From a virus, in the IMG/VR virus record IMGVR_UViG_3300030329_005244: DNA of 64,000 bases; one strand, 5' to 3'. Below the pieces are notes generated by a model that saw only the letters and a program-made list of their open reading frames with translations, made no database searches and was not told where the DNA came from. Below are positions 7,545 through 34,754 of the stretch, piece by piece. The translations under genes and the position numbers were made by a program. Position 1 is the first letter of the stretch. Each line of letters starts with the position of its first letter.

Positions 7545-9374
7545 TTAGGAAGTGGCGCCAGCCTCACCCATGATTCCGCGAACGATGACTAAGCCATACA
7601 TATCGGGACGAACCATCTTCTTGGCGTAGCGCGTCATGACGCCCTTACGGGGCACGAAGTCTTCCGGTCCAAAGATGGTGGGAGTGGTTTGCAGCGGCAC
7701 ATACGGTGCGTACACATAACCACTTTCGAGGAAGCTGCCTCCGCGACGACCGACGAGAACGACGGTACGGGGGAAGTAAGGATCGACAATAACGTCGAAC
7801 TTCTTCGAGAGGGAACCAACCTTCACAGAGCCAATGCTTCCCTTGTCGTCATCAGCGGTAACGCTTGCGCGGAAACCAGCCGTGAACTCAAGGATGTTAG
7901 CAACCTCGGGTCCGCAGACGACGAAGTTAGCTCCACCGCGAAGAGTCTTACGGTGAATCTGTGCAGAGACATCATTGATTGTCTCAGCAAGAGTCTCGTA
8001 CCACTCAGAGACGGTTCCGGTGAAGTCGGGAGCAGCCGAAGATGCGCCGATTTCCTGGCCAGTCTCGCGGTTGACGAAGAGTCCTGGGGCACGCGACCAG
8101 TAGTAAGTACCAGCGCTTGCACCTTGGATAAGATCAACGAGGATTTCGCGGTCGATTTCAAGAGCAATCTGCTCGGAGAGAATCGAGGTAAGCTCCACCT
8201 CTGCATCCAAGTTGTGATAGGCATTCAAGTCCTGTCCCAACTCAGGGGTCCACTTAGCCTTGAGCTTCTTCGTCATGGCGGTTACAGCAACACTGTCCAC
8301 CTTGATGTCGATCTCAGGGATGCGTGGGTTGTTCTCAAGACCCCAAACGGTGGTACCGAGAACGGAACCAAGTGCGGAACCATTCGTGAAGTTGTCATCG
8401 ATGGGGAACGACACGGTAAGGTTGCCAGAACCAGTAACAGAACCGAGAATACCGTTGTCCCTGCCCTCACCATGCATGGTGACGGAGCCACTAACACCTG
8501 CGAACACCATAGTGAACTTGTAACCAGCCACACTCGGATCTTGCGTAGAAGAACCAGAGGAGACAGTCGTCAGGCGACGGACAAGGTTAACGCTCTGAAG
8601 TCCAGCAGTGTCAGCAATACTATCAACACTAATGCCGATAAGATCTTGAATGTCGAGCTGGCTGAGTCCAGCAGAACCAGTCTGCTCCCAAACAGCACAG
8701 ACTGCACCAGAGAGGTCCACGTCATATCGCGTGAGCTTGTCGAGGGTGGACTGATTGGCAACCGAAAGAGGGTGAGCACCCTGTCCAGGCTGAGCACCAG
8801 CAACACCAGAGGCAATCAACACGAAACCAGCCAGACCAGTACCTGCGGGAGCAAGAGCGGTAGAACCAGTCGGCGACGAGTAACCGTTGTTCAGAGCGTA
8901 AGGACCCGATTCCGAACCACTAAAGATTCCAGAAAGATTCACACCACCAGTAACCTGGGATCCAACAACCTCGCCACCATACAGCGACTGCTCGCCAGGA
9001 CCGTAGCCAAGGCGGGGAAGACCAGCACCATCCGTCGAGGTGGTGAAGTCAAGGAAGAAGATGAGACCGCTGGGCAGGCTCATCGGCTGAACCGAAACGA
9101 GATCGTTTGCAATCAGCCCGGCAAAAACACGGCGAACGATGGGGAATGCGACGGCTGCGAAACCTTCGACATCACCACCAGACATGGTGCTTGCCTCACG
9201 GAGAAGTTCCTTTGCCTGATTCTCAAGCAGACGTGCCATCGAGCCCTTCTTGCGCTCGTCGCCAAGTCCTTCGAGAAGACCAGTTCGCTCCCACTTCTTC
9301 AACAGGGCAGAGCCCTCGGAGCGCATATCACGGTTAACGATACCTTCCGTCAACCTTTCTACAATACTAGACAT
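7545..9374 (-). CDS. gp23: Major capsid protein (T4 gp23-like)
   Basis: VSVQPMSLPSGLIFFLDF, KLKAKWTPELGQDLNAYHNLDAEVELTSILSEQIALEIDREI and GYVYAPYVPL…RKGVMTRYAK motifs; strong AGGAGG RBS. Confidence 0.97.
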   Translation of the reverse strand: MSSIVERLTEGIVNRDMRSEGSALLKKWERTGLLEGLGDERKKGSMARLLENQAKELLREASTMSGGDVEGFAAVAFPIVRRVFAGLIANDLVSVQPMSLPSGLIFFLDFTTSTDGAGLPRLGYGPGEQSLYGGEVVGSQVTGGVNLSGIFSGSESGPYALNNGYSSPTGSTALAPAGTGLAGFVLIASGVAGAQPGQGAHPLSVANQSTLDKLTRYDVDLSGAVCAVWEQTGSAGLSQLDIQDLIGISVDSIADTAGLQSVNLVRRLTTVSSGSSTQDPSVAGYKFTMVFAGVSGSVTMHGEGRDNGILGSVTGSGNLTVSFPIDDNFTNGSALGSVLGTTVWGLENNPRIPEIDIKVDSVAVTAMTKKLKAKWTPELGQDLNAYHNLDAEVELTSILSEQIALEIDREILVDLIQGASAGTYYWSRAPGLFVNRETGQEIGASSAAPDFTGTVSEWYETLAETINDVSAQIHRKTLRGGANFVVCGPEVANILEFTAGFRASVTADDDKGSIGSVKVGSLSKKFDVIVDPYFPRTVVLVGRRGGSFLESGYVYAPYVPLQTTPTIFGPEDFVPRKGVMTRYAKKMVRPDMYGLVIVRGIMGEAGATS

Positions 9375-9397: not shown

Positions 9398-10627
9398 TTA
9401 TTTAATTCCTGCTAGTTTTTGCATTCTGTCCATTACTGAATCAGAACGCTTTGGCTCGGTTTGACGAGCCGCACGTATGAGACTAGACGGACTGGCAATA
9501 GCTTCATTGAGCGAACGTGGAGTACTTTTTGTGCTCGCACTTGTCGTGCTTTGAAGGGCGCCATAGATTGCCTTCGCCTCTAACGCAGAACCAGCTTTGG
9601 AAATCGCTTCGACAAGTTTTGTTTTTTGTCGCTCATTTAGGGAGGTATTTCGCAAAACGCGGTTCGTATAAAGTAAGTGAGCATTGGAAAGGTTGACTTC
9701 TTGTAAAGTCTCTCTTAACTGTGCTACAGCTTGTTCATATTTTTCTTTCTGACCCTTGAGTTGTTTATTTTCGAAAACCAACTCTTCTTGGGCCTTTTTC
9801 AAATCTTCTAATTCTTTTGCAATGTCGGTGCTGCGGCGCTTGGCAAATGCTCTCATCATTTCCCATCGCTGGCTCTCGCTGGAACGTCCAGCCCAACCAG
9901 ATAAAGTCGCGTCAGTATCGACTGTTAATTTTTCTACTAAGTCTGCAATCATCTCTTCGGAGATGTCAATGAGTTCTTCTTCATTTGTGGGACTCCGTGC
10001 GGACTCGTCTTCGACGGGGCCAATACCACCATCATCAGTCTTGTCGCTGGCACTGGTAGCGGAACTTTGTTGTGATGCGGCGGCAAGACTAGCCGTGGGG
10101 CTTGCATACGCAACGTCATCGGCTTCAGGCTCGCCCTCTGCCAAAGGAGCTTCTAGAGGCTTCTCATCATCTTCCTCAGCAAGCATGCGCAGAAGCTGCT
10201 CATCCGTAACAATGATCTCTTCGTCGCCCAAGGCGCCATCGTCATCAGCCTCAGTAAGTTGTTCAATAGCTTCGCGAAGAGCATCCAAATTAATCGTTAC
10301 TGGAACGTCTTCGCCTTCTTCTTGCAGGTTGCTCAAGTTCTCACCCTTTTCTTCCGCCAATCCATCGGTGGCAGCTAAGGGAACATTGGGAGCAATATCT
10401 TCGGCTGGGGCGGCTGGGGATGCCTCATCAGGGGCAACATCGGCACCGCCGCCGAGATCACCAAGACCACCAAGATCTCCTAAATCCTCTTCCTGTTCTA
10501 GAAGCCTTTCCAGCGTGCTCCTCACTTCTTCAGAGTACTTATTAATAATAGTACTCTCGGCGTTCTTGAGGGCTGCCTCTCGAAGTGCCTTTGCGTCCAC
10601 CATAGCTTCTTTCAACAAGTTTGACAT
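9398..10627 (-). CDS. Prohead core scaffold protein (gp22-like)
   Basis: Very acidic coiled-coil protein directly upstream of the MCP. Contains LQEVNLSNAHLLYTN, ends RMQKLAGIK, and has many [LI]-x-E sites. Confidence 0.8.
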   Translation of the reverse strand: MSNLLKEAMVDAKALREAALKNAESTIINKYSEEVRSTLERLLEQEEDLGDLGGLGDLGGGADVAPDEASPAAPAEDIAPNVPLAATDGLAEEKGENLSNLQEEGEDVPVTINLDALREAIEQLTEADDDGALGDEEIIVTDEQLLRMLAEEDDEKPLEAPLAEGEPEADDVAYASPTASLAAASQQSSATSASDKTDDGGIGPVEDESARSPTNEEELIDISEEMIADLVEKLTVDTDATLSGWAGRSSESQRWEMMRAFAKRRSTDIAKELEDLKKAQEELVFENKQLKGQKEKYEQAVAQLRETLQEVNLSNAHLLYTNRVLRNTSLNERQKTKLVEAISKAGSALEAKAIYGALQSTTSASTKSTPRSLNEAIASPSSLIRAARQTEPKRSDSVMDRMQKLAGIK

Positions 10628-10658
10628 ACAGATGTCTCCTAAACATTAATATTCACAA

Positions 10659-10689: not shown

Positions 10690-11835
10690 TTAAGAACCAC
10701 GAGTGCCGATATTCCACCACGTCTGTCCATCGGACTGGAGGGCTCGGCTGCTATTGTTCATTTTTAACACCATTTCGTCAAAAGAATCGAGCTTACCACC
10801 CTTGGCAACAAGAGTAAGCTTGTTGCTATTCAAACGATAAGTGTTGGCATTTATCTTTTTAATATTGATCACGCGCCCCTTATGATTAGCAGCCGCCGGC
10901 AGAGTAATCCTCATATTGTTATCACTGGTATCGGCAAGAATCGTATAGTCGTTTTCTTGTACTGCATACTCTTCATCCTTCACGGTGATAATGTTGGCAA
11001 CCATCGCCCCATTGAGTTGCGTGGTTCCTTCAATACGAGCACTCCCGAGTACAAAAAGGGTATTAGTATTTACTTGCCCATTAACCGCCAATATATTGTT
11101 AGCAGGCTCAAAGCGAAAATTAGGAGAAGCAGCGAAGCCGGTGTTCCCTCTAAACTGAACATTGTATTTTCCTCCCTCGGCATGAGGTACTTTAGTGTTG
11201 ATGTAAGCATTATAGAGATTGGCGAGAGTAGTGCTGCGCACATCGCCACGCGATGAATCCTGTACCAATAACAAATCAGCATCATGAAGGTTCTGCCCTT
11301 TTTCTTTCACCCCTGGCGTGCGGCGCACATCAATAACCACCTTGTCTCCATCAAAGCTCAATCCCCCTTTGTGAGACAATTTGACTCCTACTCCGTCCTC
11401 TGTTGCTTCAATTCCCAAGGCTGGCTTGACTTGCAATGCTTCATCAATATTTCTCAAACCATGACTGTGGGCAATTTGATGTGCCGGGACTGGGTTAATA
11501 AATTTATTAGAGGGGAGCTTGTACAACCCTGCGCCTGAGCCAGTGAGTTGTTGGGCATTGATATTCGGAACATGAAGTGATTGGCCATCAAAGCGCAGAG
11601 TTTCATCCACAGCCGCTACAGTCCCCCCTGTAAAAGTTAGGACTCCTCCGTACCTATCTCCTTTGATTTGCGTCAAGGCGACATCATCTAAAGTAGCCAC
11701 TTCGCTTTGCTTTTTGACATCATAGAACCCATGAGCGCTCACCGGATTAATAAAAGTCTTCTTCCCTCCCACCTCTTGATCATTGTCTTTTCCAACAATC
11801 GACCCAACCTTACCCTTAACAACATTATAAGCCAT
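10690..11835 (-). CDS. Fibre-like structural protein (shared C-terminal TLPAA…IDG domain)
   Basis: True start is probably MAYNVV at 11835 (GAGGAG RBS). The ORF-track extension to 11952 crosses a terminator. C-terminal domain is shared with three neighbours. Confidence 0.7.
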   Translation of the reverse strand: MAYNVVKGKVGSIVGKDNDQEVGGKKTFINPVSAHGFYDVKKQSEVATLDDVALTQIKGDRYGGVLTFTGGTVAAVDETLRFDGQSLHVPNINAQQLTGSGAGLYKLPSNKFINPVPAHQIAHSHGLRNIDEALQVKPALGIEATEDGVGVKLSHKGGLSFDGDKVVIDVRRTPGVKEKGQNLHDADLLLVQDSSRGDVRSTTLANLYNAYINTKVPHAEGGKYNVQFRGNTGFAASPNFRFEPANNILAVNGQVNTNTLFVLGSARIEGTTQLNGAMVANIITVKDEEYAVQENDYTILADTSDNNMRITLPAAANHKGRVINIKKINANTYRLNSNKLTLVAKGGKLDSFDEMVLKMNNSSRALQSDGQTWWNIGTRGS

Positions 11836-11852
11836 GGAATTCTCCTCGCTCT

Positions 11853-11862
11853 TATAAATAGT
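11853..11862 (-). promoter_or_regulatory. Putative late promoter motif ACTATTTATA
   Basis: TATAAATAGT on +, immediately after a terminator. Confidence 0.65.
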
Positions 11863-11864
11863 GC

Positions 11865-11894
11865 AAAAAAAAAGACGCCCCACGAGGGGGCGTC
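11865..11894 (-). terminator. Rho-independent terminator
   Basis: GACGCCCC…GGGGCGTC stem followed by a 9-T run on the minus strand. Confidence 0.85.
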
Positions 11895-11915
11895 CAAAAG
11901 ATAAACTTTTTTGAT

Positions 11916-14297
11916 TTAGAACAACTTCCAAAGGTCGGCTGCGACGTAACACAAGCCAACAGCGGCGAAAGGCGACTGAAGGACAGCCGTCGTAGCTCCG
12001 TCAATGGTTTGCGAACCGGCGCGAGTAATGGTGATAGTATTAGTATCTCCACAGTTACTCGGTGCCTTAACGTACACAATCTGCCCAATAGTGGGCGAGG
12101 CAGGTAACGTCCAAGCGCGAGCAGCCGTCAGCGTAGCGCTTCCGTAGTTGAAGCCCGCAGCCAAAGTCTCAGCTTCATCACCGATGGCGGTGATGGTCTG
12201 AAGAACCGAACCGGCAATACTATTAACGGTAAGATCCTTAACTTGAAGATCCGCATAAGAAGCAACTGTCACCGCACTATCCGTGGGAAGACTAGTGGTG
12301 CGTGCAAAAGCAAACTCCGTTTCATTTTCATCCCAGAACATCACAGCGGCATTTTCACCACTAAGCCCCATCATCAAGCCACGATCTCCAGCAGAACCAG
12401 TAGCGTGCTCAGAATAGCCAAGGCCAATGATTGGATCGTTGACAAGAAGGTGCGAGGTGCTGTGAACAACCTTCGAACCACTCACGATGAGGTTACCAGT
12501 GACACGAACGTCGCCAGAAACGTCAAGCTGAGTAGTACCTTCGGAACCGCCAGAGAGGGTGATCTTGTCACCACCAGCCAGCGTCAGAGTCGAGCCATCA
12601 TAAGTGAAGTTCGAATCATCAGTAAGCTGTCCATTGGTGGTTGCGTAAAGGACACGACCAGAAGTAAGACCATCAGCAGTCAAAGTAGCTGCACGGAAAT
12701 CGTGAGCCCCGATGTCGAGGTCGGTGATAGCAGTCAATGCCGAAACACCTCCAATCGCACCAGCAGCAGTAATACCAGAACTCTGGAGAGCGAGCCCGCC
12801 AGCACCAGTGATAGCACCAGTTGCCGAAAGAGCACCCGAACCAGAGATGGCACCCGCCACCGTCACAACGTTAGTCTTCAAAGTCAGAAGATCCGTATCA
12901 CCAGCGATACCAATGTTCTGTCCCGCATCGAGAAGAAGGTTCTTACCAGCAAGCTGTCCAGAACCAGACACAGAGCTTGCGTTCATTGCACCAGCAACCG
13001 TAACGGTGTTGGTAGTCAAAGTCATCAAGTCAGGATCGCCAGCAGTCCCGATTTCACCACCGGTGTCAACAACAATGCCGCTACCTTTGAGCTGCATCGA
13101 ACCAGAAATCTCTCCTGCAACCTTAACGGCATTAGTCGAGAGCTTCATAAGGTCGGTGTCGCCGGCAATACCCACGAAGCGGTTATTATCGAGAACAAGA
13201 TCCTTACCAGAGAGGTTACCAGAGCCAGAAACAGTAGTAACGTTCTGCACAGCTTTGGTTTTGCTGAGGACCGTAGCGTTACCAATCGTAAGCGCAAGTC
13301 CCTTGAGTGCCATCGAGCCAGAAACCACACCACCCGTGGTGGAGATGTTCCCGCTTGCAGCAACTGCACCAGCCACCGTAACAGTGTTGGTAGTCAGAGT
13401 CATAAGATCGGTGTCTCCAGCGATACCAATGCTCTGTCCTGCGTCAAGGAGAAGTTCCTTACCAGCAAGCTGTCCAGAACCCGAAACAGAACTTGCATTC
13501 ATTGCACCGGCGACGGTGACAGTGTTGGCACTGAGCGTCATCAAGTCCAGGTCACTGGCAATACCAATTTCCTGTCCGTCATCAATGACAAGGTTTTTAC
13601 CAGAAAGACCAGCAGAACCCGACACCGAGCCACCCGTGCTACTAACATTACCGGTTGCGGAAACTACTCCGTTCACCGTAACAGTATTAGCAGTGAGCTT
13701 CATGAGGTCAGTATCGGCAGCAATACCAATGTTCTGTCCATTATCAAGCTGCAAGCTCTTACCAGCGAGCATCAAAGAACCAGAAATATCACCAGCAACG
13801 CGCAACTCGTTGTTGCGAAGCGTCAGCAAGTCATTGTCACCAGCAGTTCCAATCGTCTGATTGGTGTCGATGACGAGGTTTTTAGCCGAGAAAGTGCTAG
13901 AACCAGAAACAGTAGCAACGTTCTTGACATTCTTAGTCTTATCGATGACGGTAGAGTCACCAATCGTAAGAGCAAGACCCTTAAGAGCCAACGAACCAGA
14001 AATCATACCAGCGGTAGTGGTGATGTTGCCCGACGCAGCGACAGTAGTGAGTCCCGAAGCAGCACCGCCCGTGATCGTAGCCGTGCCGTCCGTAAGACTT
14101 CCACCAGTAATCGTGCTAGAAGCATTAACCGTAGTAGCGCCCGCAATGGCGCCCGCGTTTGTAATCCCGCCAGACTGCAAGTTTACCGAAGTGAACGTAC
14201 CGGCCAGAGCACCAACAGTGCTAGAACCGCTAACCGTTCCTTCCTGAATGAGGTTTCCGCCCAGACGGGCATCACCTACTTGAAATTTATAAGCCAT
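11916..14297 (-). CDS. Repetitive fibre protein (793 aa)
   Basis: Gly/Ser/Thr-rich with 7 internal repeats, a GNLIVSG…LLVNDPII motif and the shared C-terminal TLPASP…IDG domain. Confidence 0.8.
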   Translation of the reverse strand: MAYKFQVGDARLGGNLIQEGTVSGSSTVGALAGTFTSVNLQSGGITNAGAIAGATTVNASSTITGGSLTDGTATITGGAASGLTTVAASGNITTTAGMISGSLALKGLALTIGDSTVIDKTKNVKNVATVSGSSTFSAKNLVIDTNQTIGTAGDNDLLTLRNNELRVAGDISGSLMLAGKSLQLDNGQNIGIAADTDLMKLTANTVTVNGVVSATGNVSSTGGSVSGSAGLSGKNLVIDDGQEIGIASDLDLMTLSANTVTVAGAMNASSVSGSGQLAGKELLLDAGQSIGIAGDTDLMTLTTNTVTVAGAVAASGNISTTGGVVSGSMALKGLALTIGNATVLSKTKAVQNVTTVSGSGNLSGKDLVLDNNRFVGIAGDTDLMKLSTNAVKVAGEISGSMQLKGSGIVVDTGGEIGTAGDPDLMTLTTNTVTVAGAMNASSVSGSGQLAGKNLLLDAGQNIGIAGDTDLLTLKTNVVTVAGAISGSGALSATGAITGAGGLALQSSGITAAGAIGGVSALTAITDLDIGAHDFRAATLTADGLTSGRVLYATTNGQLTDDSNFTYDGSTLTLAGGDKITLSGGSEGTTQLDVSGDVRVTGNLIVSGSKVVHSTSHLLVNDPIIGLGYSEHATGSAGDRGLMMGLSGENAAVMFWDENETEFAFARTTSLPTDSAVTVASYADLQVKDLTVNSIAGSVLQTITAIGDEAETLAAGFNYGSATLTAARAWTLPASPTIGQIVYVKAPSNCGDTNTITITRAGSQTIDGATTAVLQSPFAAVGLCYVAADLWKLF
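12845..13910 (-). repeat. Seven ~35-45-aa in-frame repeats (SGS..L.GK.L.LD.GQ.IGIAGDTDLMTL..NTVTVAG)
   Basis: Units contain TAGDNDLL, IAADTDLM, IASDLDLM, IAGDTDLM, IAGDTDLM, TAGDPDLM and IAGDTDLL. Boundaries are approximate. Confidence 0.85.
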
Positions 14298-14365
14298 TTA
14301 TATTATCCCTCCTAATGAGATGTATAAAAACCAGGGCGCCTGGCAAAAGGCACCCTTGTTTCACG

Positions 14366-14375
14366 TATAAATAGA
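14366..14375 (-). promoter_or_regulatory. Putative late promoter motif TCTATTTATA
   Basis: TATAAATAGA on + in the intergenic gap. Confidence 0.55.
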
Positions 14376-14396
14376 AAATCTCTTAGGAAGGAGACA

Positions 14397-15416
14397 TCAT
14401 AAAATATAGAATTTATCGCTTCCGTTGCAATAAACCTGGATAGATGCATAGGGTGACACTAAAGTAACCGAACTTGCACCGTCAATGGTATCGGACCCCT
14501 GACAAGCAATAGTAACATTAGCTGAATCGGCAGCGCCCCCCTCATCTTTGATGATAAACGTTTGTCCGTTACTACATGCCGTCGCAGTGGGAAGGGTGAG
14601 CGTAATCGGATCACTGGATGCCTCTGATACAGCCGCGACAATAAAATCAACTAACTTAATGGTATAATCTACCGCTGTGGCTTTGCGAACATAAGAAATG
14701 CCCCCATAAAATTGCATTTGATAGGCACGCAATTGAAAGACGCGCCCCTGATCCATAAAAATTCCATTATTATGGAAGTTCATAAACCCAACATCAAAAC
14801 CCTTCGTTGTGCTTCCTGAGCCGAATTTTAAATTGTTTCCCTCGACACTTAGAGTGTCAGTGCCGAAATAAATGGTGCTGCTGGATATATAAAGATTGCG
14901 CCATGGGTTGGCGGAAGAACCCAAATCATAAATATTAGGCTCCACAGGGATGATGGACCCTTCCATCGACGCCGTACCGCTCAAATGTAAATTTCCAGTA
15001 AGAGTCAGCACACTACTAGAAAAGATTAAATCACCAGAACCACTCAAGCCTCCCGACCCGGTGGTAAACTGAACAGAAAAGTCAGGTCCTTGGGCATTGG
15101 CGTTTCCACCACCGCCTGCGGTAATCCCTGTGAGCTGGCTTCCATCGCCAAAGAAATAAGATGCGCTGATTCCTTGGCTGGCTGTCACATGCCCTGTTAC
15201 ATCGAGCGTGCTGCCATCAAATAATAAATTACTTTCACAGGTAAAGGTATTCGCATCTCCCGCCACATTCGTAATGAGGGAGTTGTTTACCGCATTGGAT
15301 ACACGAGGAACATTAAAAAGGTTCTCGCCCGATCCCGAAAAAGAACCTGTAACGACAATATCGCCTAAGAGTGTGGCGGGCCCAACAAGAGAACCAGTGA
15401 TTACATTGAATGCCAT
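14397..15416 (-). CDS. Fibre-like structural protein
   Basis: Contains IIP…YDLGSSANPWRNLYISSSTI, a fibre-associated motif, and the shared C-terminal LTLPTA…IIKDEGG…DTIDG domain. Confidence 0.75.
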   Translation of the reverse strand: MAFNVITGSLVGPATLLGDIVVTGSFSGSGENLFNVPRVSNAVNNSLITNVAGDANTFTCESNLLFDGSTLDVTGHVTASQGISASYFFGDGSQLTGITAGGGGNANAQGPDFSVQFTTGSGGLSGSGDLIFSSSVLTLTGNLHLSGTASMEGSIIPVEPNIYDLGSSANPWRNLYISSSTIYFGTDTLSVEGNNLKFGSGSTTKGFDVGFMNFHNNGIFMDQGRVFQLRAYQMQFYGGISYVRKATAVDYTIKLVDFIVAAVSEASSDPITLTLPTATACSNGQTFIIKDEGGAADSANVTIACQGSDTIDGASSVTLVSPYASIQVYCNGSDKFYIL

Positions 15417-15429
15417 AAATGGTCCTCCG

Positions 15430-16110
15430 TTAGAAGACGAACCACTTGTCTACACCATCCGAATAAAGACTGATTGCTGGCATTGTTCCATCGAGTTCGT
15501 AATAAGTTGCTCCATCAATAGTGTCACCAGAGGACGCTGAAATATGTATCAGGTTTGTCCCACCGGTACGGGTAGACACTTCATCTTTGATAATCATTAA
15601 AGCACCTGCCCCCGCAACTGCGGCTTCGTGAATGCGAACATTGGATGCTCCATTCTCGGAAATACCAATCACATAATTTTTGTTAGAACAAGTAAACGGA
15701 GTAGCAGCAACACGCTGATAATGTCCCGCAAACCCCCTTACATGCACCTTCTCGGTTGCCGTCGAAGCACTTAAAATATAATCATAGTTAGAAGAGGTAA
15801 CAATTAAACTACCTGTCCGTAGGTGCGTGTCATCATTGCTGTCACCAAAATAAGTTGAACCCGTCGCATCGATAATGGCGATGTCTTCAACATGATAAAT
15901 GCTAGCGCTTATTGTCCCACTGACGATCATGTTACCTGAAAGCACCAAGCTATTGGGGAAATACCCAAAGCCCGATGCAGAATAATACATCAGGTAATCC
16001 GAACCCGTTAGTTCGCCCGCAGCATGATGGATCTGAACGGAACCAGTTGGACCTTTAGCCGCATCAGTTACGTCAGAGCAATCTACATATGCCCAGCCAA
16101 ACTTAGCCAT
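15430..16110 (-). CDS. Fibre-like structural protein
   Basis: Contains GSTYFGDSNDDTH and the shared C-terminal IIKDE…DTIDG…ISLYSDG..KWFVF domain. Confidence 0.7.
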   Translation of the reverse strand: MAKFGWAYVDCSDVTDAAKGPTGSVQIHHAAGELTGSDYLMYYSASGFGYFPNSLVLSGNMIVSGTISASIYHVEDIAIIDATGSTYFGDSNDDTHLRTGSLIVTSSNYDYILSASTATEKVHVRGFAGHYQRVAATPFTCSNKNYVIGISENGASNVRIHEAAVAGAGALMIIKDEVSTRTGGTNLIHISASSGDTIDGATYYELDGTMPAISLYSDGVDKWFVF

Positions 16111-16112
16111 TA

Positions 16113-16592
16113 TTAACCGACTCCTAGCGAGCCTGTCCAGTTCGGTCCAGCCGCCTCAACAGTACCGTCAACTGCCCTATCATCCGGAATGGAAACACGA
16201 GAAGCAGGAAGGCTCGTAAGCCCCGCCACTACGTCAAAAGTGTAAGTACTGGCATCGTTAGACATAAACCACAACTCGCTCACTTTCAAATCGAGGGGGC
16301 TGCAAAAACTGGAGCTAATATTCACATTAAAATTATAGCCTCCAGCGGGTGTACTGGCTCCCTTCCCGTGCAGCCCATTCTCACTAAAAGCCACGCGAAC
16401 GGAACGATTGTGCGCCATGTCGTGTTGAGGTTGAATCATCACCCACTTGGTGACATAGGGAAACCTCACCACTAAAGAATTGCTCCCGCTTGCATAAGCC
16501 ACACACGAACCGGTGGCGTAAGGGCGTCCGCTCACTTGGAAAGAGCCAACGTTGTTTAAACCTGGAGTGATATTCCAAGGATTATGCGCCAT
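16113..16592 (-). CDS. Hypothetical virion protein
   Basis: AGGAG RBS and late motif upstream; PGLNNVGSFQVSG N-terminus; first gene of the fibre cluster. Confidence 0.65.
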   Translation of the reverse strand: MAHNPWNITPGLNNVGSFQVSGRPYATGSCVAYASGSNSLVVRFPYVTKWVMIQPQHDMAHNRSVRVAFSENGLHGKGASTPAGGYNFNVNISSSFCSPLDLKVSELWFMSNDASTYTFDVVAGLTSLPASRVSIPDDRAVDGTVEAAGPNWTGSLGVG

Positions 16593-16620
16593 AATAAATC
16601 TCCTAAATTGTCATTTGCAC

Positions 16621-16630
16621 TATAAATAGT
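16621..16630 (-). promoter_or_regulatory. Putative late promoter motif ACTATTTATA
   Basis: TATAAATAGT on +, directly after the bS21 stop. Confidence 0.65.
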
Positions 16631-16632
16631 CG

Positions 16633-16875
16633 CTACTTATTTCTATTACGCCTTTCTTGCGCTCTAATTCTTTTTTGTTCCTCCCGATATGCATTCCGTT
16701 TATAACGACGAATCTGCTCCTTCTTTACTACCGAAGGCTTTTTATAATATCTCTTCTCGTGAACTTCTTCAAGAATACGAGCCTTCTTGGTTTTTTTAGA
16801 AAAACGACGAATCATGCGTTCGACGTTGCCTTTGCACTCGCGTAGAGTTACTTTTACATTATATCCTTTTGCCAT
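16633..16875 (-). CDS. rpsU: Phage-encoded ribosomal protein bS21
   Basis: 80 aa and very basic. NVERMIRRFSKK…ILEEVHEKRYYKKPSVVKK matches the bS21 signature (E..LRRFK…R.YYEKPS..RK). Confidence 0.88.
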   Translation of the reverse strand: MAKGYNVKVTLRECKGNVERMIRRFSKKTKKARILEEVHEKRYYKKPSVVKKEQIRRYKRNAYREEQKRIRAQERRNRNK

Positions 16876-16881
16876 ATTATC

Positions 16882-17307
16882 CTACTTCATTGCTTGCCAG
16901 ATATTACCGGCATTTCCAAAAATTGAACTGATGTCTACACCAGCGTCGTTAGGGTTGCCTAAATCCACTGCGCCCGCTTTGGGCGTGGACGCCTCATGTT
17001 GTGACATGGGCGTAGTACCCTCAAACAAATCAATACCATTGTAGGCGTCCGATCCAATGGAATCCATCAAACTTTTACGATGTTCTTGCAACTTGCGCCT
17101 AGTGTCTTGTGCTTGCCGTTTCATTTGTTGCGGCTCTTCGCGCACAACAGGGGGTTGTGGTGCTCGTGTTTCGACCACCAAATTTTGTTGCATTCCCTTA
17201 ACAACCTCAGAGACAACGTTAGAAAGAAGCCCCTCTTCTAAAAGGACTTCTTGGATGCACTCTTTAACGACTGGCTTGATTAAAGCCTTTAATTGATTCT
17301 TTTTCAT
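16882..17307 (-). CDS. Hypothetical protein with a leader related to the MK..LxxIIxEE family
   Basis: N-terminus MKKNQLKALIKPVVKECIQEVLLEE; located in the head operon. Confidence 0.7.
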   Translation of the reverse strand: MKKNQLKALIKPVVKECIQEVLLEEGLLSNVVSEVVKGMQQNLVVETRAPQPPVVREEPQQMKRQAQDTRRKLQEHRKSLMDSIGSDAYNGIDLFEGTTPMSQHEASTPKAGAVDLGNPNDAGVDISSIFGNAGNIWQAMK

Positions 17308-18013
17308 GTATCCTCGGGGGGTGTGGGGTGTTTAAATTTGTTCAAACGGGATTGTAATTGAGATTCCAAATCATCTAAATCTTGAGGAGCGGGGAGTTGC
17401 AAAGGGGGAAGCTGCGTGGGCTCCAAAGTCACATCTAAATAATCCTGTATTTGTTTTTCATTACGATTCCCAAAAACTTTATATAAAGTATCGGCAGTCA
17501 CAAGAGCCATCATTGCAAAAAGACGAGCCGTCCATCCTGCCACATAGCCTTTGGGATCCGCCAGCAATTGGAATCCCCAATGAGTCATCTTCTTTTTTAA
17601 TGCAAAGAGAATAAATCTGACTGATGCTTTAGAGAGCTTGGAAGAGTTCAATTCTTCCAGAAAGTCTTTTTCGGCTTTTGCCCAACCCTTTTCCATCTCT
17701 TCCATGGCAACAACTGTACGACGCAGCTTGTCTGCCAAACCAGGACGCTTCTCCTTGAGAAGTGCCATCTTCGAAGCATCGCGAGATGTTTCTTTAACCA
17801 CATGCCACCAAGTAGGCCATGAAATGCCATAACCCACTACCTCAGTTAATTCCTCAGTGGGCTCAATTTCCAAAACCTGAATCAATTCAGGGAGGTCTTC
17901 TCGCAGGGTTTCCTCGGCTGCAACGATATCAGGGTCGGTGCCATCTTCGGTGAGGTATTTCCGCCAATTCTCCATAAGGAGGCTCTGCTTGGGAAAACTC
18001 GACCATGACTTGT

Positions 18014-18017
<4 letters not shown>
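17304..18017 (-). CDS. Hypothetical protein, putative internal head protein (WSSF…ENWRKYL leader)
   Basis: Shares its N-terminal ~25 aa with 18014..18655; ATGA coupling. Confidence 0.65.
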
Positions 18018-18647
<630 letters not shown>

Positions 18648-18655
<8 letters not shown>

Positions 18656-19253
18656 CGCTCAATACCTCGTTAAGAAGTCTATTGATACGGTCTCCCTTTG
18701 TGAAAATGTTGGGCTTTAATTCTTTTGCCTCTTTCATCATGAAGGCGCCAGGCGTAGAAGGCTCGGAAACGAAGTCAAAGCAAATTAATTGGAAGTCGTC
18801 TTCAACAATCGAGCGTCCATTTTCTTCTCGCAACGAACCCATTCCTCTGGAAGAAATGCCCATCGTGCATTCATCATCCACCAAAGCGCGGAGGATTTTC
18901 CCCGCAGGAGTGTTGAGTACTCTGGCTTTTCCCATAACAGCATCGCCGTCCATCCAAATAGCGGTTATTCTATGGGAGGCATTGGCGAGATTAATCACTG
19001 CTGAATCAGGGTGATCCAATTCGCCTAATGCTCGGTTTTCTTTGATAAGTTTTTGATAGTTTGCAACTTCTCTCTTCATCACTTCAAAGGTGTAAGTCCG
19101 TCCATTTCCATTGACAGTATTGCATTGTTGGAGTTTGCCCGAAAGGATCATTCCGCCTTCGGCAACGAACTTCTTTTCGGATTCGGTGAGAAGGTCTTGG
19201 CAGACGCCTCCGTCGCAGAGGGCGTAGTATTCGCGTAATAAGTGTTTAGCCAT
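18648..19253 (-). CDS. gp21: Prohead protease (T4 gp21-like)
   Basis: NGNGRTY, ALGELDHP, GISSRGMGS and DFVSEPSTPGA catalytic motifs. Confidence 0.95.
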
Positions 19254-19259
19254 TGCTTC

Positions 19260-19934
19260 TTATTCCTCCCATACCCTTTTTTCGTCAGCCAATTCTTTGC
19301 GAGCCCATCGACGAGACTCCCAATATTCCCTTCCCAGGCGACCGGACGGCATATCCTCCGAACCATATTTTTCTTCATTGGCTTGGATACTGTCGTCGTG
19401 GGGTCCTCCCCACGGGTTTACTTCCATCTTGGCGTCGTCTACGCCATCACCTCGGGCATTATCAAGTCGGACGCTCCAATCGCCTCCGCCATAGCCGCCT
19501 TCATCGGACGCGCCGCGTTCATAATCGCCATAGCCTTCCTGCATCGTCTCATCTAAATCTTTGCGATAAAGGTAATGCATATAGCCCTTCATATATGCCC
19601 TATCTTCGGGGGTTGAGCGAGGCTGTGGACGATTAGGCTGGATGTTGTCCCAAGTGCCAGGCTTCCAAGTAGCCGTCGTATGATCAAAGTTGTCACGTTG
19701 TGCAAGTGCATCTTCTTTGCCTTGGTCGTAGTTAGAATCACCGGGACCAGGTTCTGGGGGAAGTTCGGGCGCTGCTGGTGGCGCTTCGGCGCGGTGGATG
19801 TGGTGAGGATCATTTCGGCGACGCTTATATCTCCGATACGGTCCGGTGGTCCACCACTCGCCATGAACCTCTTTCATCGTCCGCGAGATCTCTTCTGTGA
19901 TAATCTCAATCAATCGCTTCTTTGAAACTTTCAT
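19260..19934 (-). CDS. Hypothetical protein with MKVSKKRLIEIITEEI leader
   Basis: GGAG RBS; leader-family member with an otherwise low-complexity body. Confidence 0.7.
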   Translation of the reverse strand: MKVSKKRLIEIITEEISRTMKEVHGEWWTTGPYRRYKRRRNDPHHIHRAEAPPAAPELPPEPGPGDSNYDQGKEDALAQRDNFDHTTATWKPGTWDNIQPNRPQPRSTPEDRAYMKGYMHYLYRKDLDETMQEGYGDYERGASDEGGYGGGDWSVRLDNARGDGVDDAKMEVNPWGGPHDDSIQANEEKYGSEDMPSGRLGREYWESRRWARKELADEKRVWEE

Positions 19935-20931: not shown

Positions 20932-21745
20932 CGGTATTGATTTCCTTAAGAAGCGATTGTATATTTAGAACATTCAACAATAAGTGTTCGCTTATTTCTG
21001 TCTTTGCAAACCCATTTAGTTTTTCCACTACCCTTTCAGTCTTCTGGAGCATCTCCGGGTCCGATTGAATCTCGGTAATGGTTTTGGCATCTTCCAACTC
21101 TCTTTTGAGGCGACAAATTTCCTCATTAAGGAACATCTTGAGTTCGACAGCATTATCCGAAAAAGAGGCGATATAGTGAGCAAGAAGTGCTTTTTGCTCA
21201 TCCAGAAGCTCAGCCCCATATTTATCATTAAACTTTTTTACAAAAGAATTGTAGACAAGATTGTCTACCACGGGGGCATCCTGCTCGGCAGAAGACTGCA
21301 TCATTCCCTTTACGATGTTGCTCTCCAACATTACGCGATCCTTGGGAGAGGTTTTAAGAGAAAAGATTTGCGCAATTGTAGCTAAAGACTTGTAATTGGG
21401 AACAAAATTGTTAAACACCGAAGGAGAAAGCTGCTTGTTAATGTCTTTAATAAGAGCTGTCTTTTGAGCGAACAGCGTATGTGCATCCAACGCACTGCGC
21501 TGATGTCGTGCTTCTTTTAAAATCTTTCGTGAAGTTTCTTCGTCTAGATTCTGATTTTCATACAGAGAGGAATAGCATTGCATTTCCTTTCTTAAGATAG
21601 AATCGGATGCAAAATGCTCTTTGAGGATGTTCACTATTTTATTTCGTCTTTCAACATCCTTGCGCATCACAGCCACTGTCGCTTCACGTACAAGTGCTTC
21701 ATAAACAAAAGCAATGTTTCTCTTCTTATTATGTCGTTTTTTCAT
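20915..21745 (-). CDS. Hypothetical helical protein, possible prohead core component
   Basis: 276 aa; overlaps the portal stop; helical with many L-x-E sites. Confidence 0.65.
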   Translation of the reverse strand: MKKRHNKKRNIAFVYEALVREATVAVMRKDVERRNKIVNILKEHFASDSILRKEMQCYSSLYENQNLDEETSRKILKEARHQRSALDAHTLFAQKTALIKDINKQLSPSVFNNFVPNYKSLATIAQIFSLKTSPKDRVMLESNIVKGMMQSSAEQDAPVVDNLVYNSFVKKFNDKYGAELLDEQKALLAHYIASFSDNAVELKMFLNEEICRLKRELEDAKTITEIQSDPEMLQKTERVVEKLNGFAKTEISEHLLLNVLNIQSLLKEINTDANHN

Positions 21746-23750
21746 CTACAGTCTCCACCAAAATTGTTTGTTTCTTTTCCAAGCCTTCGATAAGATTGCG
21801 AATTGAATCATTCACATCAAAGAGCTTTTCCTCTTCAAGTTTTTCTCTCACTTTATAAGTAGATTGATTATTCTCATAAATACCCTCAGTTATACCGCGC
21901 GCCAGGGTTCTCAATTCTTTGGCGCCAGGAAATACATTGGTCAGGGTATTTTTCCCCACAGAGTTGCCGCCTAAAGACAATTGGTGCCGATGACGAGCGC
22001 CACCGCCCCGACTATCAAAAGGCTCTCTTTCGTACCTCTTGCCGTTGGAGCCCGGGGTTAGGTAACCTTTTTTGGTTGACGACTTTGTTGGCTTTAAGGT
22101 AGGGGCATTCCGAGAACCAGGAGGAACAGCCAACAATGTCGGCTCTTCGGCAGCTCCACCGCCCAATTCATCAGGGGCAATATCAGCGGCATCTGCCTCA
22201 ATGGGGCCAGCATCTTCCATGTCGCCCATAAGATCTGCCCCAAGTTCTGCTTCAAGTCCTCCACCAGCAGCACCGGCTTGTTCACCTTCTGCGGCAGCCT
22301 GCAACGCCGAATCATATTTCCTATCATAAAACATCTCTCGCTGACACCGCAAGAACTCCTCATGAGACATGTTGAACACATGTTCAGCAACCCAACGACG
22401 ACTGAAAAAGCCCTCGGTTGCACCGGCTGCTGTATCAAACTTAGTCTTCCAATGTTCCAATTCTTGAAGCTCGGCAATCTTGGAAGGATTATTAAGAGTC
22501 AGTGAGAAGCTCAACAAATCATCATTGCGAAAGCCCAAAGTATAAAGATGAATGATTCCAATCTTGGTCAGTTCAGAAATAACCACTCGCTGAAGTCTCT
22601 GAATTGTTCTTGCAAAACGAATATCCTTCTGTGCAAGAGTTGTCTTGTCTTCCGCACCATCTTCACCCATCGTCAAATAAGCTTGGGGAATCTTAATGGC
22701 TGCGAAGAGCTTATCGCGCAAATACTTAATATCATCAATCTGCGTGGTATTGGTGCCACCAGCCAGATTCTGAATGTCCGTGACACTTCCAGCGCGCACA
22801 GGAATGAAATAATCTTCTTCAATGCTCATAGGGTTATAGCGAAGATCTACGCGCCCGGTGTCAGGATCCACCAGAGAGTGACGCTTAAGCTGTGTCACAA
22901 TTTTTTGCATATACTGCTCCACATCTTGTGGAGGAATGGCGCCCACATCAATCTTAAAGACGCGACGTTCTGACGAACGGACGACCCGATAAGCCATCAT
23001 GGCGTCTTCCATCAGAGTTAGCTGGCGCCAAATACGTCGGCACGGCTCTAAAACTGAAGTACCGTAAGGGGCATACTTATCGTTTCCAAGAATTCTGAAG
23101 TGTGCAATCTGCCAGTTCTCAAACGTCATTCCCGCTGAGTTCCACTGGTATTGGACATAATTGGGATTCGTTGCATCTTGCCCCTCCAAGCGCTCGATCT
23201 CCGCAGGGGGCAACCCAATAACCGACTTAACTCCAAAGTTGTCATCAATGTCTAGATACAAAAAGAAGTCGCCGTACTTGCACATCGTGCGGCACCAGCC
23301 AAAAAGATTGTTATTAATATTTAAAATGTTATCAAAAAGAATATGGAGGACAGCTTTAATCTCTTCGTTGGGACACTTGACGTTAAGCATTGGACGCAAA
23401 CTAGAATAAGTCGTCATTTCATCAGCATAAATATCCAAGGCTGATGCAAGAATAGGATCATATTCCATTTGATCAAAGTCCACATAGCGCTCTTGCCGCT
23501 GTTGATTGGCAATGGCATTCGCTGCTAAAATATCAAGAGGGTTATAAAGAGTCTTTTTAAACTGCTGACCTGATGCAGATTTAAAACGAGAGGAGAACTT
23601 ATCTAAATGTTGTCTCCGAATCTTTCGTCCAGATTGAGAGCGGTAATTGATAATAGGCCCCGAGAACAATCTCGTAAGCGCCTTAAAAAGCCCAGTGGAA
23701 GTGTCCACGGGATTCTTACCTTTAGTTATGTTTTTGTTAAATGGGGGCAT
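21729..23750 (-). CDS. gp20: Portal protein (T4 gp20-like)
   Basis: MEDAMMAYRVVRSSERRVFKIDVG, EDYFIPVR, DDIKYLRDKLFAAIKIP and DIRFARTIQRLQ motifs; long acidic C-terminal extension. Confidence 0.95.
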   Translation of the reverse strand: MPPFNKNITKGKNPVDTSTGLFKALTRLFSGPIINYRSQSGRKIRRQHLDKFSSRFKSASGQQFKKTLYNPLDILAANAIANQQRQERYVDFDQMEYDPILASALDIYADEMTTYSSLRPMLNVKCPNEEIKAVLHILFDNILNINNNLFGWCRTMCKYGDFFLYLDIDDNFGVKSVIGLPPAEIERLEGQDATNPNYVQYQWNSAGMTFENWQIAHFRILGNDKYAPYGTSVLEPCRRIWRQLTLMEDAMMAYRVVRSSERRVFKIDVGAIPPQDVEQYMQKIVTQLKRHSLVDPDTGRVDLRYNPMSIEEDYFIPVRAGSVTDIQNLAGGTNTTQIDDIKYLRDKLFAAIKIPQAYLTMGEDGAEDKTTLAQKDIRFARTIQRLQRVVISELTKIGIIHLYTLGFRNDDLLSFSLTLNNPSKIAELQELEHWKTKFDTAAGATEGFFSRRWVAEHVFNMSHEEFLRCQREMFYDRKYDSALQAAAEGEQAGAAGGGLEAELGADLMGDMEDAGPIEADAADIAPDELGGGAAEEPTLLAVPPGSRNAPTLKPTKSSTKKGYLTPGSNGKRYEREPFDSRGGGARHRHQLSLGGNSVGKNTLTNVFPGAKELRTLARGITEGIYENNQSTYKVREKLEEEKLFDVNDSIRNLIEGLEKKQTILVETVDEKTT

Positions 23751-25354: not shown

Positions 25355-25630
25355 TTAATACCCAACGCTTGCTAAACTTGCGCCAGGAGTAATAAGCTGC
25401 CTGATAAGTTCTACCACTTCTTTATCATCGCCAATCTTTAACTTGGCGGCTATTTCTTCAGCAGTGCTGCCTTGTTTGGAGAGTATTTCTCCCGCATGAA
25501 TCAAGTTCAAAAGTTTGCCTTCGGGAGAGGTGTCGAACACAGGCTCGGTAGTTCCGAGTTCTTCGCCCGCAGCGATGTCCTCAATCTCTTCTTTAATAAT
25601 CTGCTTAAGTCTTGCCTTTGAAAGTTTCAT
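25355..25630 (-). CDS. Hypothetical protein with MKLSKARLKQIIKEEI leader
   Basis: Start at 25630 overlaps the upstream stop (ATGA); leader-family member. Confidence 0.7.
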   Translation of the reverse strand: MKLSKARLKQIIKEEIEDIAAGEELGTTEPVFDTSPEGKLLNLIHAGEILSKQGSTAEEIAAKLKIGDDKEVVELIRQLITPGASLASVGY

Positions 25631-28182: not shown

Positions 28183-29001
28183 TTAGTTTTCGCCTTGGTT
28201 CATTAGATAATCGATGGCGCCCTGAACATGGTTCATCATTTCTCGCATTGCTTCATAGGCTTGCTGTTCGGTTTCGGCACCCCTCTGGGCGAGTTCTTTA
28301 ATTTGTGCGAAGGCTTTTCCTGGCTCGACAGACTCAACCGAATCAAGAGTTCGAACCATTCCAGTGTCGCCCTCTTCGCCTTCAAATTCCTCCGGATGCT
28401 CAAAGACATATCCCATCGCCTCTTCGGCAAATTCCATAATTTCTTCAAGAGCCCCCATCGGATCTTCTTGAATAGATGGATCGTCAAGAAGAACAAGAAC
28501 TTCCTGCATTGCCCCTACGGGCGAAAGGCCACCCTCATCGTCGGCAAGGTCCTGCACAAGTCGGCTGTAATCAGCTTCCTTGAGAACCTGGCGAATAAGG
28601 TGTTGAAGGCTTTGCTTCGTGAGTTTCATAGGTTTGTTTTCCTTTACTACTCTGAGATGTGTGCCTTTAGCCCTGGTGTTTTCTGGTGGCGGCTCCCATG
28701 GCTCAGCGACATTTATTGTGATGCGATAATATAGATCGTTGGTGTCTCCTCTACCTTCAGTCGCATCAATCCTAATGCTTTGCAAGTCGTAGTCGCCATA
28801 GTCATCCGTCGGCACAAGACCCAGATCTCGTAGAACATCATCAATCTTCTCCCTGAGTCGGCGCTGTCTATGATCATCCATCGGCACAAGGGGGTGCCAA
28901 GGTCTTGTACGCGATCCAGGTTCTCCTCGTTCGTTTTCTGTCACGGCTTTGCCGTATTCTTCTTTGATAATCTTTTTAAGGGCTGCTTTTGTAAGTTTCA
29001 T
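28183..29001 (-). CDS. Hypothetical two-module protein with two MK-leader motifs (29001 and 28629)
   Basis: MKLTKAALKKIIKEEY at 29001; internal MKLTKQSLQHLIRQVLKE at 28629 with its own AAGGA RBS. Confidence 0.7.
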   Translation of the reverse strand: MKLTKAALKKIIKEEYGKAVTENERGEPGSRTRPWHPLVPMDDHRQRRLREKIDDVLRDLGLVPTDDYGDYDLQSIRIDATEGRGDTNDLYYRITINVAEPWEPPPENTRAKGTHLRVVKENKPMKLTKQSLQHLIRQVLKEADYSRLVQDLADDEGGLSPVGAMQEVLVLLDDPSIQEDPMGALEEIMEFAEEAMGYVFEHPEEFEGEEGDTGMVRTLDSVESVEPGKAFAQIKELAQRGAETEQQAYEAMREMMNHVQGAIDYLMNQGEN

Positions 29002-29978: not shown

Positions 29979-30235
29979 CAGTAGTCTCCAGGGGCACCCA
30001 TATCGATAACAACCTCTTCTTCGCCTGCCGGAACCATATCAGTTCCACCAAGCGCAGCAGACAAACGCTGTGCGAGGTCTGCAAGTTCCGCCGCCAGAGC
30101 AACGGGATCCTCAGCAGCAGGTTCCCCAACGGGATCCATCTCTTCTGGTGCTGGTTCATCAGCCATCGGGCAACCGCCCTCGTTGGCCAACTCTTCCATA
30201 ATAATTTGTCGTAGTCTTTCTTTTGAGATTTTCAT
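29978..30235 (-). CDS. Small acidic protein with MKISKERLRQIIMEEL leader
   Basis: Leader followed by an Asp/Glu/Pro-rich, scaffold-like body. Confidence 0.7.
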   Translation of the reverse strand: MKISKERLRQIIMEELANEGGCPMADEPAPEEMDPVGEPAAEDPVALAAELADLAQRLSAALGGTDMVPAGEEEVVIDMGAPGDY

Positions 30236-33509: not shown

Positions 33510-34754
33510 TTATCGTCGCGGAATGCCAGGGTTTTTTTCGCCCGCTATTCCCGCTTCGTATCCCATCGCAACCAATTCTGGTTGATGACTAAAGAACACC
33601 GACGTTTGATCTATTTCTCCACCTGCTTTACCCAACTCGTATCCGTGGTCTACCGCTTGCTTCTGTCCTCTCGGGGTATCAAAATGTTTTCTGATTTCTT
33701 CTTTGTCTATCTTGCCCTTAAACTCAACCATTTGAGCCTCATCTAGTCCTTCTAAGGAGTTTGTCAAGAAGGTAAACAGAATTGACCACTCGGGGGGCAA
33801 CACTGTTTTTACTTCGCCACCATCTTTAACTTTTATTTGAACTGATTCTGCGCCCGCTAAACCAACTTGCCCAATGCCCAAAAGTTCCCTATAAACAGAA
33901 AAGAGATATTTGACTTTATCTGGGGAGCCATCCAGATTCGCTTGAAGGTAATCGAACGCTTCTTGCCCAGTGTCGGATTTTAACTTTGGAATTGGCTTGT
34001 CCAGTAAAGCGCCGGGAGAAATGTAATCGGTGGCTGGCGCTCTCTTATATTTAACGAGCCTCTTCTCCATGCTGCCTTCTCCAAAAGAGTCGATAGAATC
34101 TATTTGTCCTTCAAAATTGTAGTTGTCTAAATAGTGATCTCCCTGGACTGCCATGTGTGGCCCTCCATAATCTCCGCGAACATCCTCAACAGATGCGTGG
34201 TGAGCGGGGCGTTCCAGGGCTGCTTGGGATTGAAGATAATCAAGAAAGGATGCTCCCGTACCAAGGGCGGCGGCAGTGCCAACCACAAGTCCGATCCTCT
34301 TAAGAAGATCCCTTCGGCTTTGCATTTTATAAGCGAGTTCAGCGCTAACATCTTCTTTCTCGATGCCGCGCTCTGTTGCTTTTAAGCCAATCAGCTTCAA
34401 TAATTGTGCGGCAAAACCGCCTTGGGCTTCGTCTAAAGTTCCAGAATCAAGTATATCAATGATTTCATCAGCAGCTTGTGCCGCCTCGTCATCCGGCGGA
34501 GATTGTTCGGCGAGCCAATCTGTCACGCCCTCTTTAACAACTTGCTGAATTATATATTCTTCAACCGTCTCGCGGATTATTTGAAGTAGGGCAGCCTCTG
34601 TGAGTTCCACGGCTTCATCTGTAGAGCCACTGTCGGGTTCCACAGAATAGAGTTTAGCCATATACGCTTTGGCTTTTTCTTCAGTTGAGGAGCAGCCTTT
34701 TTTTTCATCTGTATCTTTCCTATAGACGCACTTGCCTCGTCTTACATAAGGCAT
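33510..34754 (-). CDS. Hypothetical mosaic protein, putative internal head protein
   Basis: N-terminal MPY…KCV…GCS..EKAKAY module, then an internal leader-like LTEAALLQIIRETVEE, several L-x-E sites and one hydrophobic segment. Confidence 0.65.
   Translation of the reverse strand: MPYVRRGKCVYRKDTDEKKGCSSTEEKAKAYMAKLYSVEPDSGSTDEAVELTEAALLQIIRETVEEYIIQQVVKEGVTDWLAEQSPPDDEAAQAADEIIDILDSGTLDEAQGGFAAQLLKLIGLKATERGIEKEDVSAELAYKMQSRRDLLKRIGLVVGTAAALGTGASFLDYLQSQAALERPAHHASVEDVRGDYGGPHMAVQGDHYLDNYNFEGQIDSIDSFGEGSMEKRLVKYKRAPATDYISPGALLDKPIPKLKSDTGQEAFDYLQANLDGSPDKVKYLFSVYRELLGIGQVGLAGAESVQIKVKDGGEVKTVLPPEWSILFTFLTNSLEGLDEAQMVEFKGKIDKEEIRKHFDTPRGQKQAVDHGYELGKAGGEIDQTSVFFSHQPELVAMGYEAGIAGEKNPGIPRR

Follow-up and report, generated by a model that had tools for sequence, protein, structure and literature searches.

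A conserved, predicted amphipathic helix in the scaffold protein of a T4-like phage and its weak likeness to cargo leaders

The acidic middle of the gp22-like scaffold protein of an uncultured marine T4-like phage contains a short conserved segment, island C, that is predicted to form an amphipathic helix and that resembles, in part, the leaders carried by presumed capsid-cargo genes of the same virus. The likeness is weak and mostly generic, and it is too weak to carry the mechanism that had been proposed for it, in which the cargo leaders imitate a self-association helix of the scaffold and co-polymerise with it into the core. Mimicry of island C by cargo leaders is thus not shown. The explanation towards which we lean is that island C serves the scaffold as a contact helix and has a protease site at its end, with the likeness to leaders arising from constraints on helix starts and protease sites that both kinds of element have in common.

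The phage and its head genes

The window, by which we mean the entire 64,000-nucleotide stretch of viral DNA that was analysed (IMG/VR record IMGVR_UViG_3300030329_005244), has all of its long ORFs on the minus strand. Its capsid protein is 41-47% identical to those of the closest cultured relatives, Flavobacterium phage immuto, Microcystis phage Mel-JY01 and Rhodothermus phage RM378, and the virus is therefore an uncultured, distant T4-like myophage. The scaffold gene lies immediately upstream of the gp23-type capsid gene, inside a module that includes the portal and S77 protease genes (Table 1), and the order of the head genes is the same in immuto and Mel-JY01.

Relative to those two phages, the window carries several additional genes at 10690-16875 (minus strand), from the protease block to the scaffold. 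One of these, at 16633-16875, is bS21-like; others are ORFs of 159, 226, 339, 793 and about 380 aa, the 339-aa ORF having a weak gp9/10-like baseplate match. A plus-strand frame of 297 aa that runs antisense over the scaffold gene (9756-10649) most likely arises from the richness of the coding strand in GAA and GAG, and was treated as an artefact.

Table 1. Positions of the head genes, scaffold elements and cargo leaders discussed in the text; positions are those of the window, except for the last line
Feature	Position	Strand	Sequence or residues	Basis or remark
Major capsid protein, T4 gp23 type	7545-9374	-		Pfam PF07068, E 4.5e-71; PHROG 138
Scaffold, T4 gp22-like prohead core protein	9398-10627	-	409 aa	Position upstream of capsid gene, composition, AF2 model
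Scaffold C-terminal tail	9401-9436	-	VMDRMQKLAGIK	RM[QKR][KRQ]LAGI essentially invariant in scaffolds of 80 related viral contigs
Island D	9881-9970	-	Residues 220-249	Conservation; AF2 helix 224-235
Island C	10166-10222	-	EEIIVTDEQLLRMLAEEDD, residues 136-154	Core at 10172-10210; conservation; AF2 helix
Island B	10241-10300	-	VTINLDALREAIEQLTEADD, residues 110-129	Conservation; AF2 helix 114-129
Prohead protease, T4 gp21 type (Peptidase_S77)	18648-19253	-		Pfam PF03420, E 5.5e-32, 111 bits (cut-off 27)
Cargo leader	19887-19934	-	MKVSKKRLIEIITEEI	Gene directly upstream of protease
Portal-like gene	21729-23750	-		Head module
Cargo leader	25583-25630	-	MKLSKARLKQIIKEEI
Cargo leader	28954-29001	-	MKLTKAALKKIIKEEY
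Cargo leader	30188-30235	-	MKISKERLRQIIMEEL
Cargo leader	35957-36004	-	MKISKSQLKAILKEEI	Second, internal copy MKITRKQLKAILVEEI at 35165-35212
Mel-JY01 scaffold	L002:10830-11930			Match at residues ~167-180

Architecture of the scaffold protein

The ORF next to the capsid gene was taken to encode a gp22-type scaffold because of its position, its composition and its many hydrophobic-x-Glu sites. There are 17 such sites, many of them conserved, as expected of a core protein that is degraded by the protease. The protein has a pI of 4.36; residues 50-250 are acidic (net charge -46) and largely disordered, and the C-terminal half is basic and of coiled-coil type. Searches of Pfam and PHROG returned no scaffold family, with no PHROG match and only sub-threshold matches of coiled-coil type in Pfam, and the 2874 homologues found in metagenomes do not include a single named protein.

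In an AlphaFold2 (AF2) model based on the homologue alignment, helices are predicted at about residues 1-49, 114-129, 142-152 and 224-235, followed by a long C-terminal coiled coil, and the linkers between the mid-region helices have pLDDT values below 50. In this model, acidic spacers separate three short mid-region helices, here called islands B, C and D. Island B is a conserved helix of the same general type as island C. Island D is the most conserved of the three, with an invariant E232 and nearly invariant D237, G244 and W245, and it leads into a strongly conserved LTVD...LSGWAGRS block; in distant homologues it is often the top leader-like segment of the protein.

One scaffold homologue of 709 aa (P0104) carries ~350 extra residues, including stretches that are Gly/Ala-rich or basic, inserted between islands B and D at the usual place of island C. 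This region of the scaffold seems to tolerate, or to serve for, large insertions.

Island C is a conserved segment in a variable region

The first-pass annotation had placed a leader-type motif at scaffold residues ~140-152, and translation of the gene puts it exactly there, as VTDEQLLRMLAEE (V-T-D-E-Q-L-L-R-M-L-A-E-E, residues 140-152). The weaker copy that it had also listed, ISEEMIADLVE, is present at residues 222-232 (nt 9932-9964), at the start of island D. Alignment of homologues bore out the further expectation that the segment is a conserved island within the low-complexity middle of the scaffold. For instance, the sequence VTD[EQ][QE]LL[RN]MLAEE is nearly invariant in 18 relatives at 69-79% identity, in which the flanks are acidic and vary by substitutions and a 20-residue indel. 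Among 37 homologues down to 35% identity, columns 135-154 are distinct from their gappy, low-information flanks, and the island is recognisable in about three-quarters of these more distant proteins, with a family consensus of ~EE[IVF]E[IL][DETN]EEDLxx[LM]LxE[ED]. The features that they retain are the hydrophobic positions 138, 140, 145, 148 and 149 and the acidic end.

The AF2 monomer model shows island C as an isolated helix of 11 residues (142-152, pLDDT ~73) between linkers with values below 50. The helix is short and amphipathic, with T141 as its N-cap, and it ends in L149-A150-E151, a hydrophobic-x-Glu sequence that matches the L/I-X-E motif after which T4 gp21, the enzyme that degrades gp22 to peptides, cuts (PMC9026906); the core protein of T4 is likewise described as chopped by the prohead protease (PMC9958956). 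In the column of E151, a hydrophobic-x-Glu arrangement is found in ~41% of the 37 aligned homologues, and the protease-site part of island C is therefore not firmly conserved.

Cargo leaders and the features shared with island C

The leaders of the window conform to MK[ILV][ST][KR]xxLxxI[IL]xEE, also written MK[ILV][ST]KxxLKxIIxEE, and are found at six ORF starts and as two internal copies; ORFs headed by the same MK[ILV][ST] type of leader are present in related viral contigs. Over leader residues 1-13, the net charge is +3 to +5 in 11 of 13 leaders. Another leader-like sequence, VELTEAALLQIIRETV, is located at 34563-34610 (minus strand), where it forms residues 49-64 of a 414-aa ORF (33510-34754) and is thus internal rather than N-terminal; it scores 16-19 bits against the leader matrix, above the scaffold segment. 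A second leader class, WSSF..ENWR[KR]YL, occurs on the window ORFs at 17304-18655. Four ORFs of immuto (nt 118587, 1802, 103761 and 117586) begin with another N-terminal family, ME(N)(T)FDLKKFLVENKLT.NS..., which may correspond to this second class.

Leaders and island C can be placed in one register, with leader positions 3, 8, 11 and 12 equivalent to scaffold V140, L145, M148 and L149. Both have a hydrophobic residue just ahead of a Ser/Thr, further hydrophobic residues at +5, +8 and +9, and a final x-Glu-Glu (E151 and E152 in the scaffold). In one anecdotal case, that of L013 and L073, Leu gives way to Ile in leader and island alike. The predicted helix starts also agree, at scaffold residue 142 after T141 and at leader residue 5 after Ser/Thr 4, and with each AF2 helix beginning next to its Ser/Thr, the [IV]-[ST] that they have in common amounts to an N'-Ncap pair, that is, to a generic helix start. 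The capping box with a hydrophobic staple is an established helix-start motif. Its arrangement of a hydrophobic residue, Ser/Thr, x-x-[Glu/Gln] and a hydrophobic residue fits island C and the leaders alike, and, as a piece of structural grammar that marks no functional family, it accounts for part of the likeness without any shared partner.

Other features are not shared. Island C has no equivalent of the N-terminal Met-Lys of the leaders, being internal (residue 138/140) with I-I in place of M-K. At leader positions 2, 5 and 9, which are basic, and 13, which usually is, the scaffold has I, D, L and A, and the family consensus E, E, x and E. The helices also differ in length, with ~20 residues in the leader (5-24) and ~11 in island C.

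How leader-like is island C?

The pattern on which the likeness was originally based, [IV][ST]x3Lx2(hyd)2xEE, matches no window ORF of 50 aa or more, in any of the six frames, apart from the leader-bearing ones and the scaffold at this site, and it occurs in 0.11% of shuffled scaffolds. It was, however, drawn post hoc, with wildcards exactly where scaffold and leaders differ (K5, K9 and K13), and a pattern faithful to the leaders has no match in the scaffold. Scored with a matrix made solely from the seven leaders of the window, island C is the best segment of the scaffold at 10.5 bits, as compared with 20-36 bits for six of the seven real leaders in a leave-one-out test (the exception, at 3.3, is the divergent internal copy in 28183-29001). 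When the scaffold is shuffled with its composition preserved, 10.5 bits is reached in 4.1%, 11% and 22% of cases with 13, 14 and 16 columns, respectively; if the matrix is instead built from 13 leaders and used over 13 columns with a general background, P from shuffles is 0.003. Comparators from the same window include the bS21-like protein at 12.3 bits and several unrelated proteins at 7-9 bits. The match at island C is real and somewhat above chance in this scaffold, and it is far below that of a true leader.

When the comparison was extended to the scaffold family, the expectation that the segment would stand out against a leader model largely failed. Across the 37 homologues, the mean score of island C against the leader matrix is -4.4 bits, the same as for other scaffold helices and control segments, and only six of these sequences reach at least 8 bits. 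An hhalign comparison of the leader profile with the scaffold profile found no relation (probability 0.2%). A profile-profile scan gave its best offset jointly to island C and to residues 32-46, and column-permuted leader profiles fit the scaffold profile equally well (P 0.17-0.5). Among 140 homologue representatives, segments of at least 10 bits were found in 15 forward sequences versus 3 reversed and 7 shuffled ones, a mild, direction-specific excess. None of ~270 scaffold homologues examined has a true MK-leader. At the DNA level, 17-20 of 39 bases are identical between the segment and leader-coding sequences, with third positions random, which argues against any recent exchange of DNA between them.

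Comparison with immuto and Mel-JY01

A matrix constructed solely from the four leaders of immuto (MKKS[QE]L..II.E.L) was run over the whole 190-kb genome of Mel-JY01 (PP395634.1). The best match genome-wide lies inside the scaffold, at 25.0 bits versus 12.8 for the runner-up, and is MKKEKLVQLVKEEE (short form KKEKLVQLVKEEE), at a position equivalent to island C. In 40 relatives of the Mel subfamily, this helix is conserved as [DM]KKEKLVQLV[EK]EEE. Without the first three columns of the matrix, the match is only the fourth in the genome. No leader-bearing cargo gene was found in Mel-JY01, and the helix thus exists there with nothing to mimic it. The possibility that the MKKEKL... sequence is an internal translation start was ruled out, the Met being Asp in most relatives.

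A clear case of a scaffold element on other proteins is provided by immuto (MW353176.1), a phage of the same clade as the window virus. Its scaffold (125582-126823) ends in SEQVSRWQKLAGIIK, and two ORFs other than the scaffold (nt 111630 and 25469) start with MKKQILSEQF[RK]RMQ[KF]LAGIITE, a near-copy of that tail. Judged from the sequences, these starts are a scaffold-tail tag on other proteins, that is, a cargo tag copied from a scaffold element. The two situations are not of the same closeness, with a near-exact copy of the scaffold C-terminal tail in immuto and, in the window, a far looser, skeleton-level likeness to an internal helix. The RMxKLAGIK tail also ends the scaffold in the window and in 80 related contigs; a search of the window for RMxxLAGI copies of the tail found it on the scaffold itself only.

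Comparison with T4

As in T4, the scaffold gene of the window comes directly before a gp23-type capsid gene, the head module has an S77 protease of gp21 type, and the scaffold is an acidic, helical protein rich in sites of the L/I-x-E type. Its N-terminus, MSNLLKEAMVDAK, resembles that of T4 gp22, MLKEQLIAEAQK, while a direct hhalign alignment with gp22 is not significant (probability 0.4%, 29 columns at 41% identity around EVNLSNA..SLNERQK). In contrast to T4, the window has ~8 kb of fibre-like and other genes between scaffold and protease, and its scaffold is longer (409 versus 269 aa), has a long disordered acidic middle with helix islands, and ends in the invariant RMxKLAGIK tail that is absent from gp22.

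The T4 internal proteins IPII and IPIII carry the capsid targeting sequence (CTS) MKTYQEFIAE, which was confirmed against the T4 genome. This CTS shows an affinity for the core, and gp21 removes it (PMC9026906, PMC9958956). Its skeleton of hyd-x-x-hyd-hyd-x-Glu is common to island C and to the longer leaders of the window. Island C is nevertheless unlike the CTS in being internal, at residue 140, in having no initiator Met and in lacking the basic residues of the leaders. In four T4 reviews (PMC9026906, PMC9958956, PMC3012670 and PMC7411985), there is no statement that the CTS imitates a gp22 helix.

The N-terminus of gp22, MLKEQLIAE-A, resembles the CTS, MKTYQEFIAE-A. Both (T4 locus L083:118-147) also resemble short hyd-hyd-x-Glu peptides at the N-termini of the window's scaffold (MSNLLKE-A, 10607-10627, minus strand) and protease (MAKHLLRE-Y, 19230-19253, minus strand). 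It is possible that the core proteins themselves carry, in these, N-terminal peptides for processing or targeting.

Explanations for the likeness

The account that we find somewhat more persuasive than not begins with the architecture of the scaffold. Islands B, C and D would be short amphipathic helices along the acidic, otherwise disordered middle of a gp22-like scaffold, with island C held by purifying selection, as its conservation suggests, as a contact module of the prohead core; candidate partners are another scaffold chain, the capsid protein or a core protein. When the core is dismantled, the phage's own S77 protease would cut at hydrophobic-x-Glu sites such as the one at the end of island C. 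The leader likeness would then follow from joint constraints on the two elements, namely a hydrophobic residue with a Ser/Thr N-cap, an i, i+3, i+4 spacing of hydrophobic residues, and, at the end, a site of protease type with Glu after it, and the leaders would not be copies of the island C helix. What the analysis shows directly is the sequence and how it is conserved, the helix prediction and the weakness of the similarity in statistical terms.

A functional link between leaders and island C appears rather unlikely. Here, a single type of hydrophobic face would serve both, either through mimicry or through pairing of complementary charges, such that the leader takes the site at which island C packs onto the scaffold, or a basic leader pairs with the acidic island; cargo would be recruited to the growing core in this way, and freed by a protease cut after the terminal Glu. 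The identical hydrophobic register and N-cap position are consistent with such a link, as are leader positions 2, 5 and 13, which are basic in the leaders and acidic in the island consensus, and the mild forward excess of leader-like segments in the family. In addition, the conserved Mel-type island, KKEKLVQLV[EK]EEE, is the top genome-wide match of the immuto-leader matrix, and T4 internal proteins co-purify with gp22, the CTS being said to have affinity for the core (PMC9026906). However, the leader-likeness of the island is not kept across homologues and has no significance at the profile level, and Mel-JY01 has the leader-like scaffold helix with no leader-bearing cargo genes found. Moreover, the immuto leader is two residues shorter before the first Leu, whereas the scaffold island keeps the longer spacing. 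For the mimicry proposed in the first-pass annotation, then, the register, the N-cap, the forward excess (15 versus 3 and 7) and the Mel-JY01 match stand in its favour, and the profile comparisons and the basic leader positions stand against it.

A more specific form of this idea is that island C, together with its Mel-type counterpart KKEKLVQLVEEE, represents a copy, within the scaffold, of an address helix used by the cargo leaders, which we regard as doubtful. On the same reading, leaders would have arisen from, or converged on, a core-docking scaffold helix or would be its charge-reversed partner, and we attach equally little weight to this origin.

Also doubtful is the view that what leaders and island C have in common serves chiefly as an extended helix for recognition by the S77 prohead protease, since one enzyme has to cut both, leaving the island with no separate role in assembly. 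In its favour, the skeleton hyd-x-x-hyd-hyd-x-E is found in the T4 CTS (Y4..F7 I8. E10), in the leader (L8..I11 I12. E14) and in island C (L145..M148 L149. E151), residues 8 and 10 of the CTS govern processing in T4, and the scaffold is rich in conserved hydrophobic-x-Glu sites. Yet the full skeleton is present at island C in only 12 of the 37 homologues, at least two matches to it occur in 12% of shuffled scaffolds, and T4 gp21 reportedly needs very few determinants besides L/I-X-E. Recognition by the protease would, in addition, leave the conservation of residues 138-145, upstream of the site, without an explanation.

Pure coincidence, by which an acidic helical protein happens to fit a loose pattern and the conservation of the island has no tie to leaders, would agree with the post hoc pattern, the spread of P in fair tests (0.003-0.5) and the similar scores of unrelated window proteins, but it is improbable, since it overlaps mostly with the contact-helix account and differs only in denying the helix-start and protease-site constraints, and since the forward-over-reversed excess and the Mel-JY01 case point beyond noise.

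Implications

To our knowledge, the structural basis by which a CTS of the T4 type recognises the scaffolding core is still not known. If leaders really share a helix grammar with a conserved scaffold element, targeting could be tested by simple peptide and mutant experiments, and the design of cargo tags would become possible for T4-like phages across a large marine and freshwater clade. Were the address-helix reading to be true, it would provide the first structural rule for how a T4-type CTS chooses the core. The outcome for capsid targeting is modest, a testable but weakly supported lead. For the scaffold itself, an architecture of three conserved helices, acidic linkers and an invariant tail is now defined for a very large unnamed family of more than 2800 homologues.
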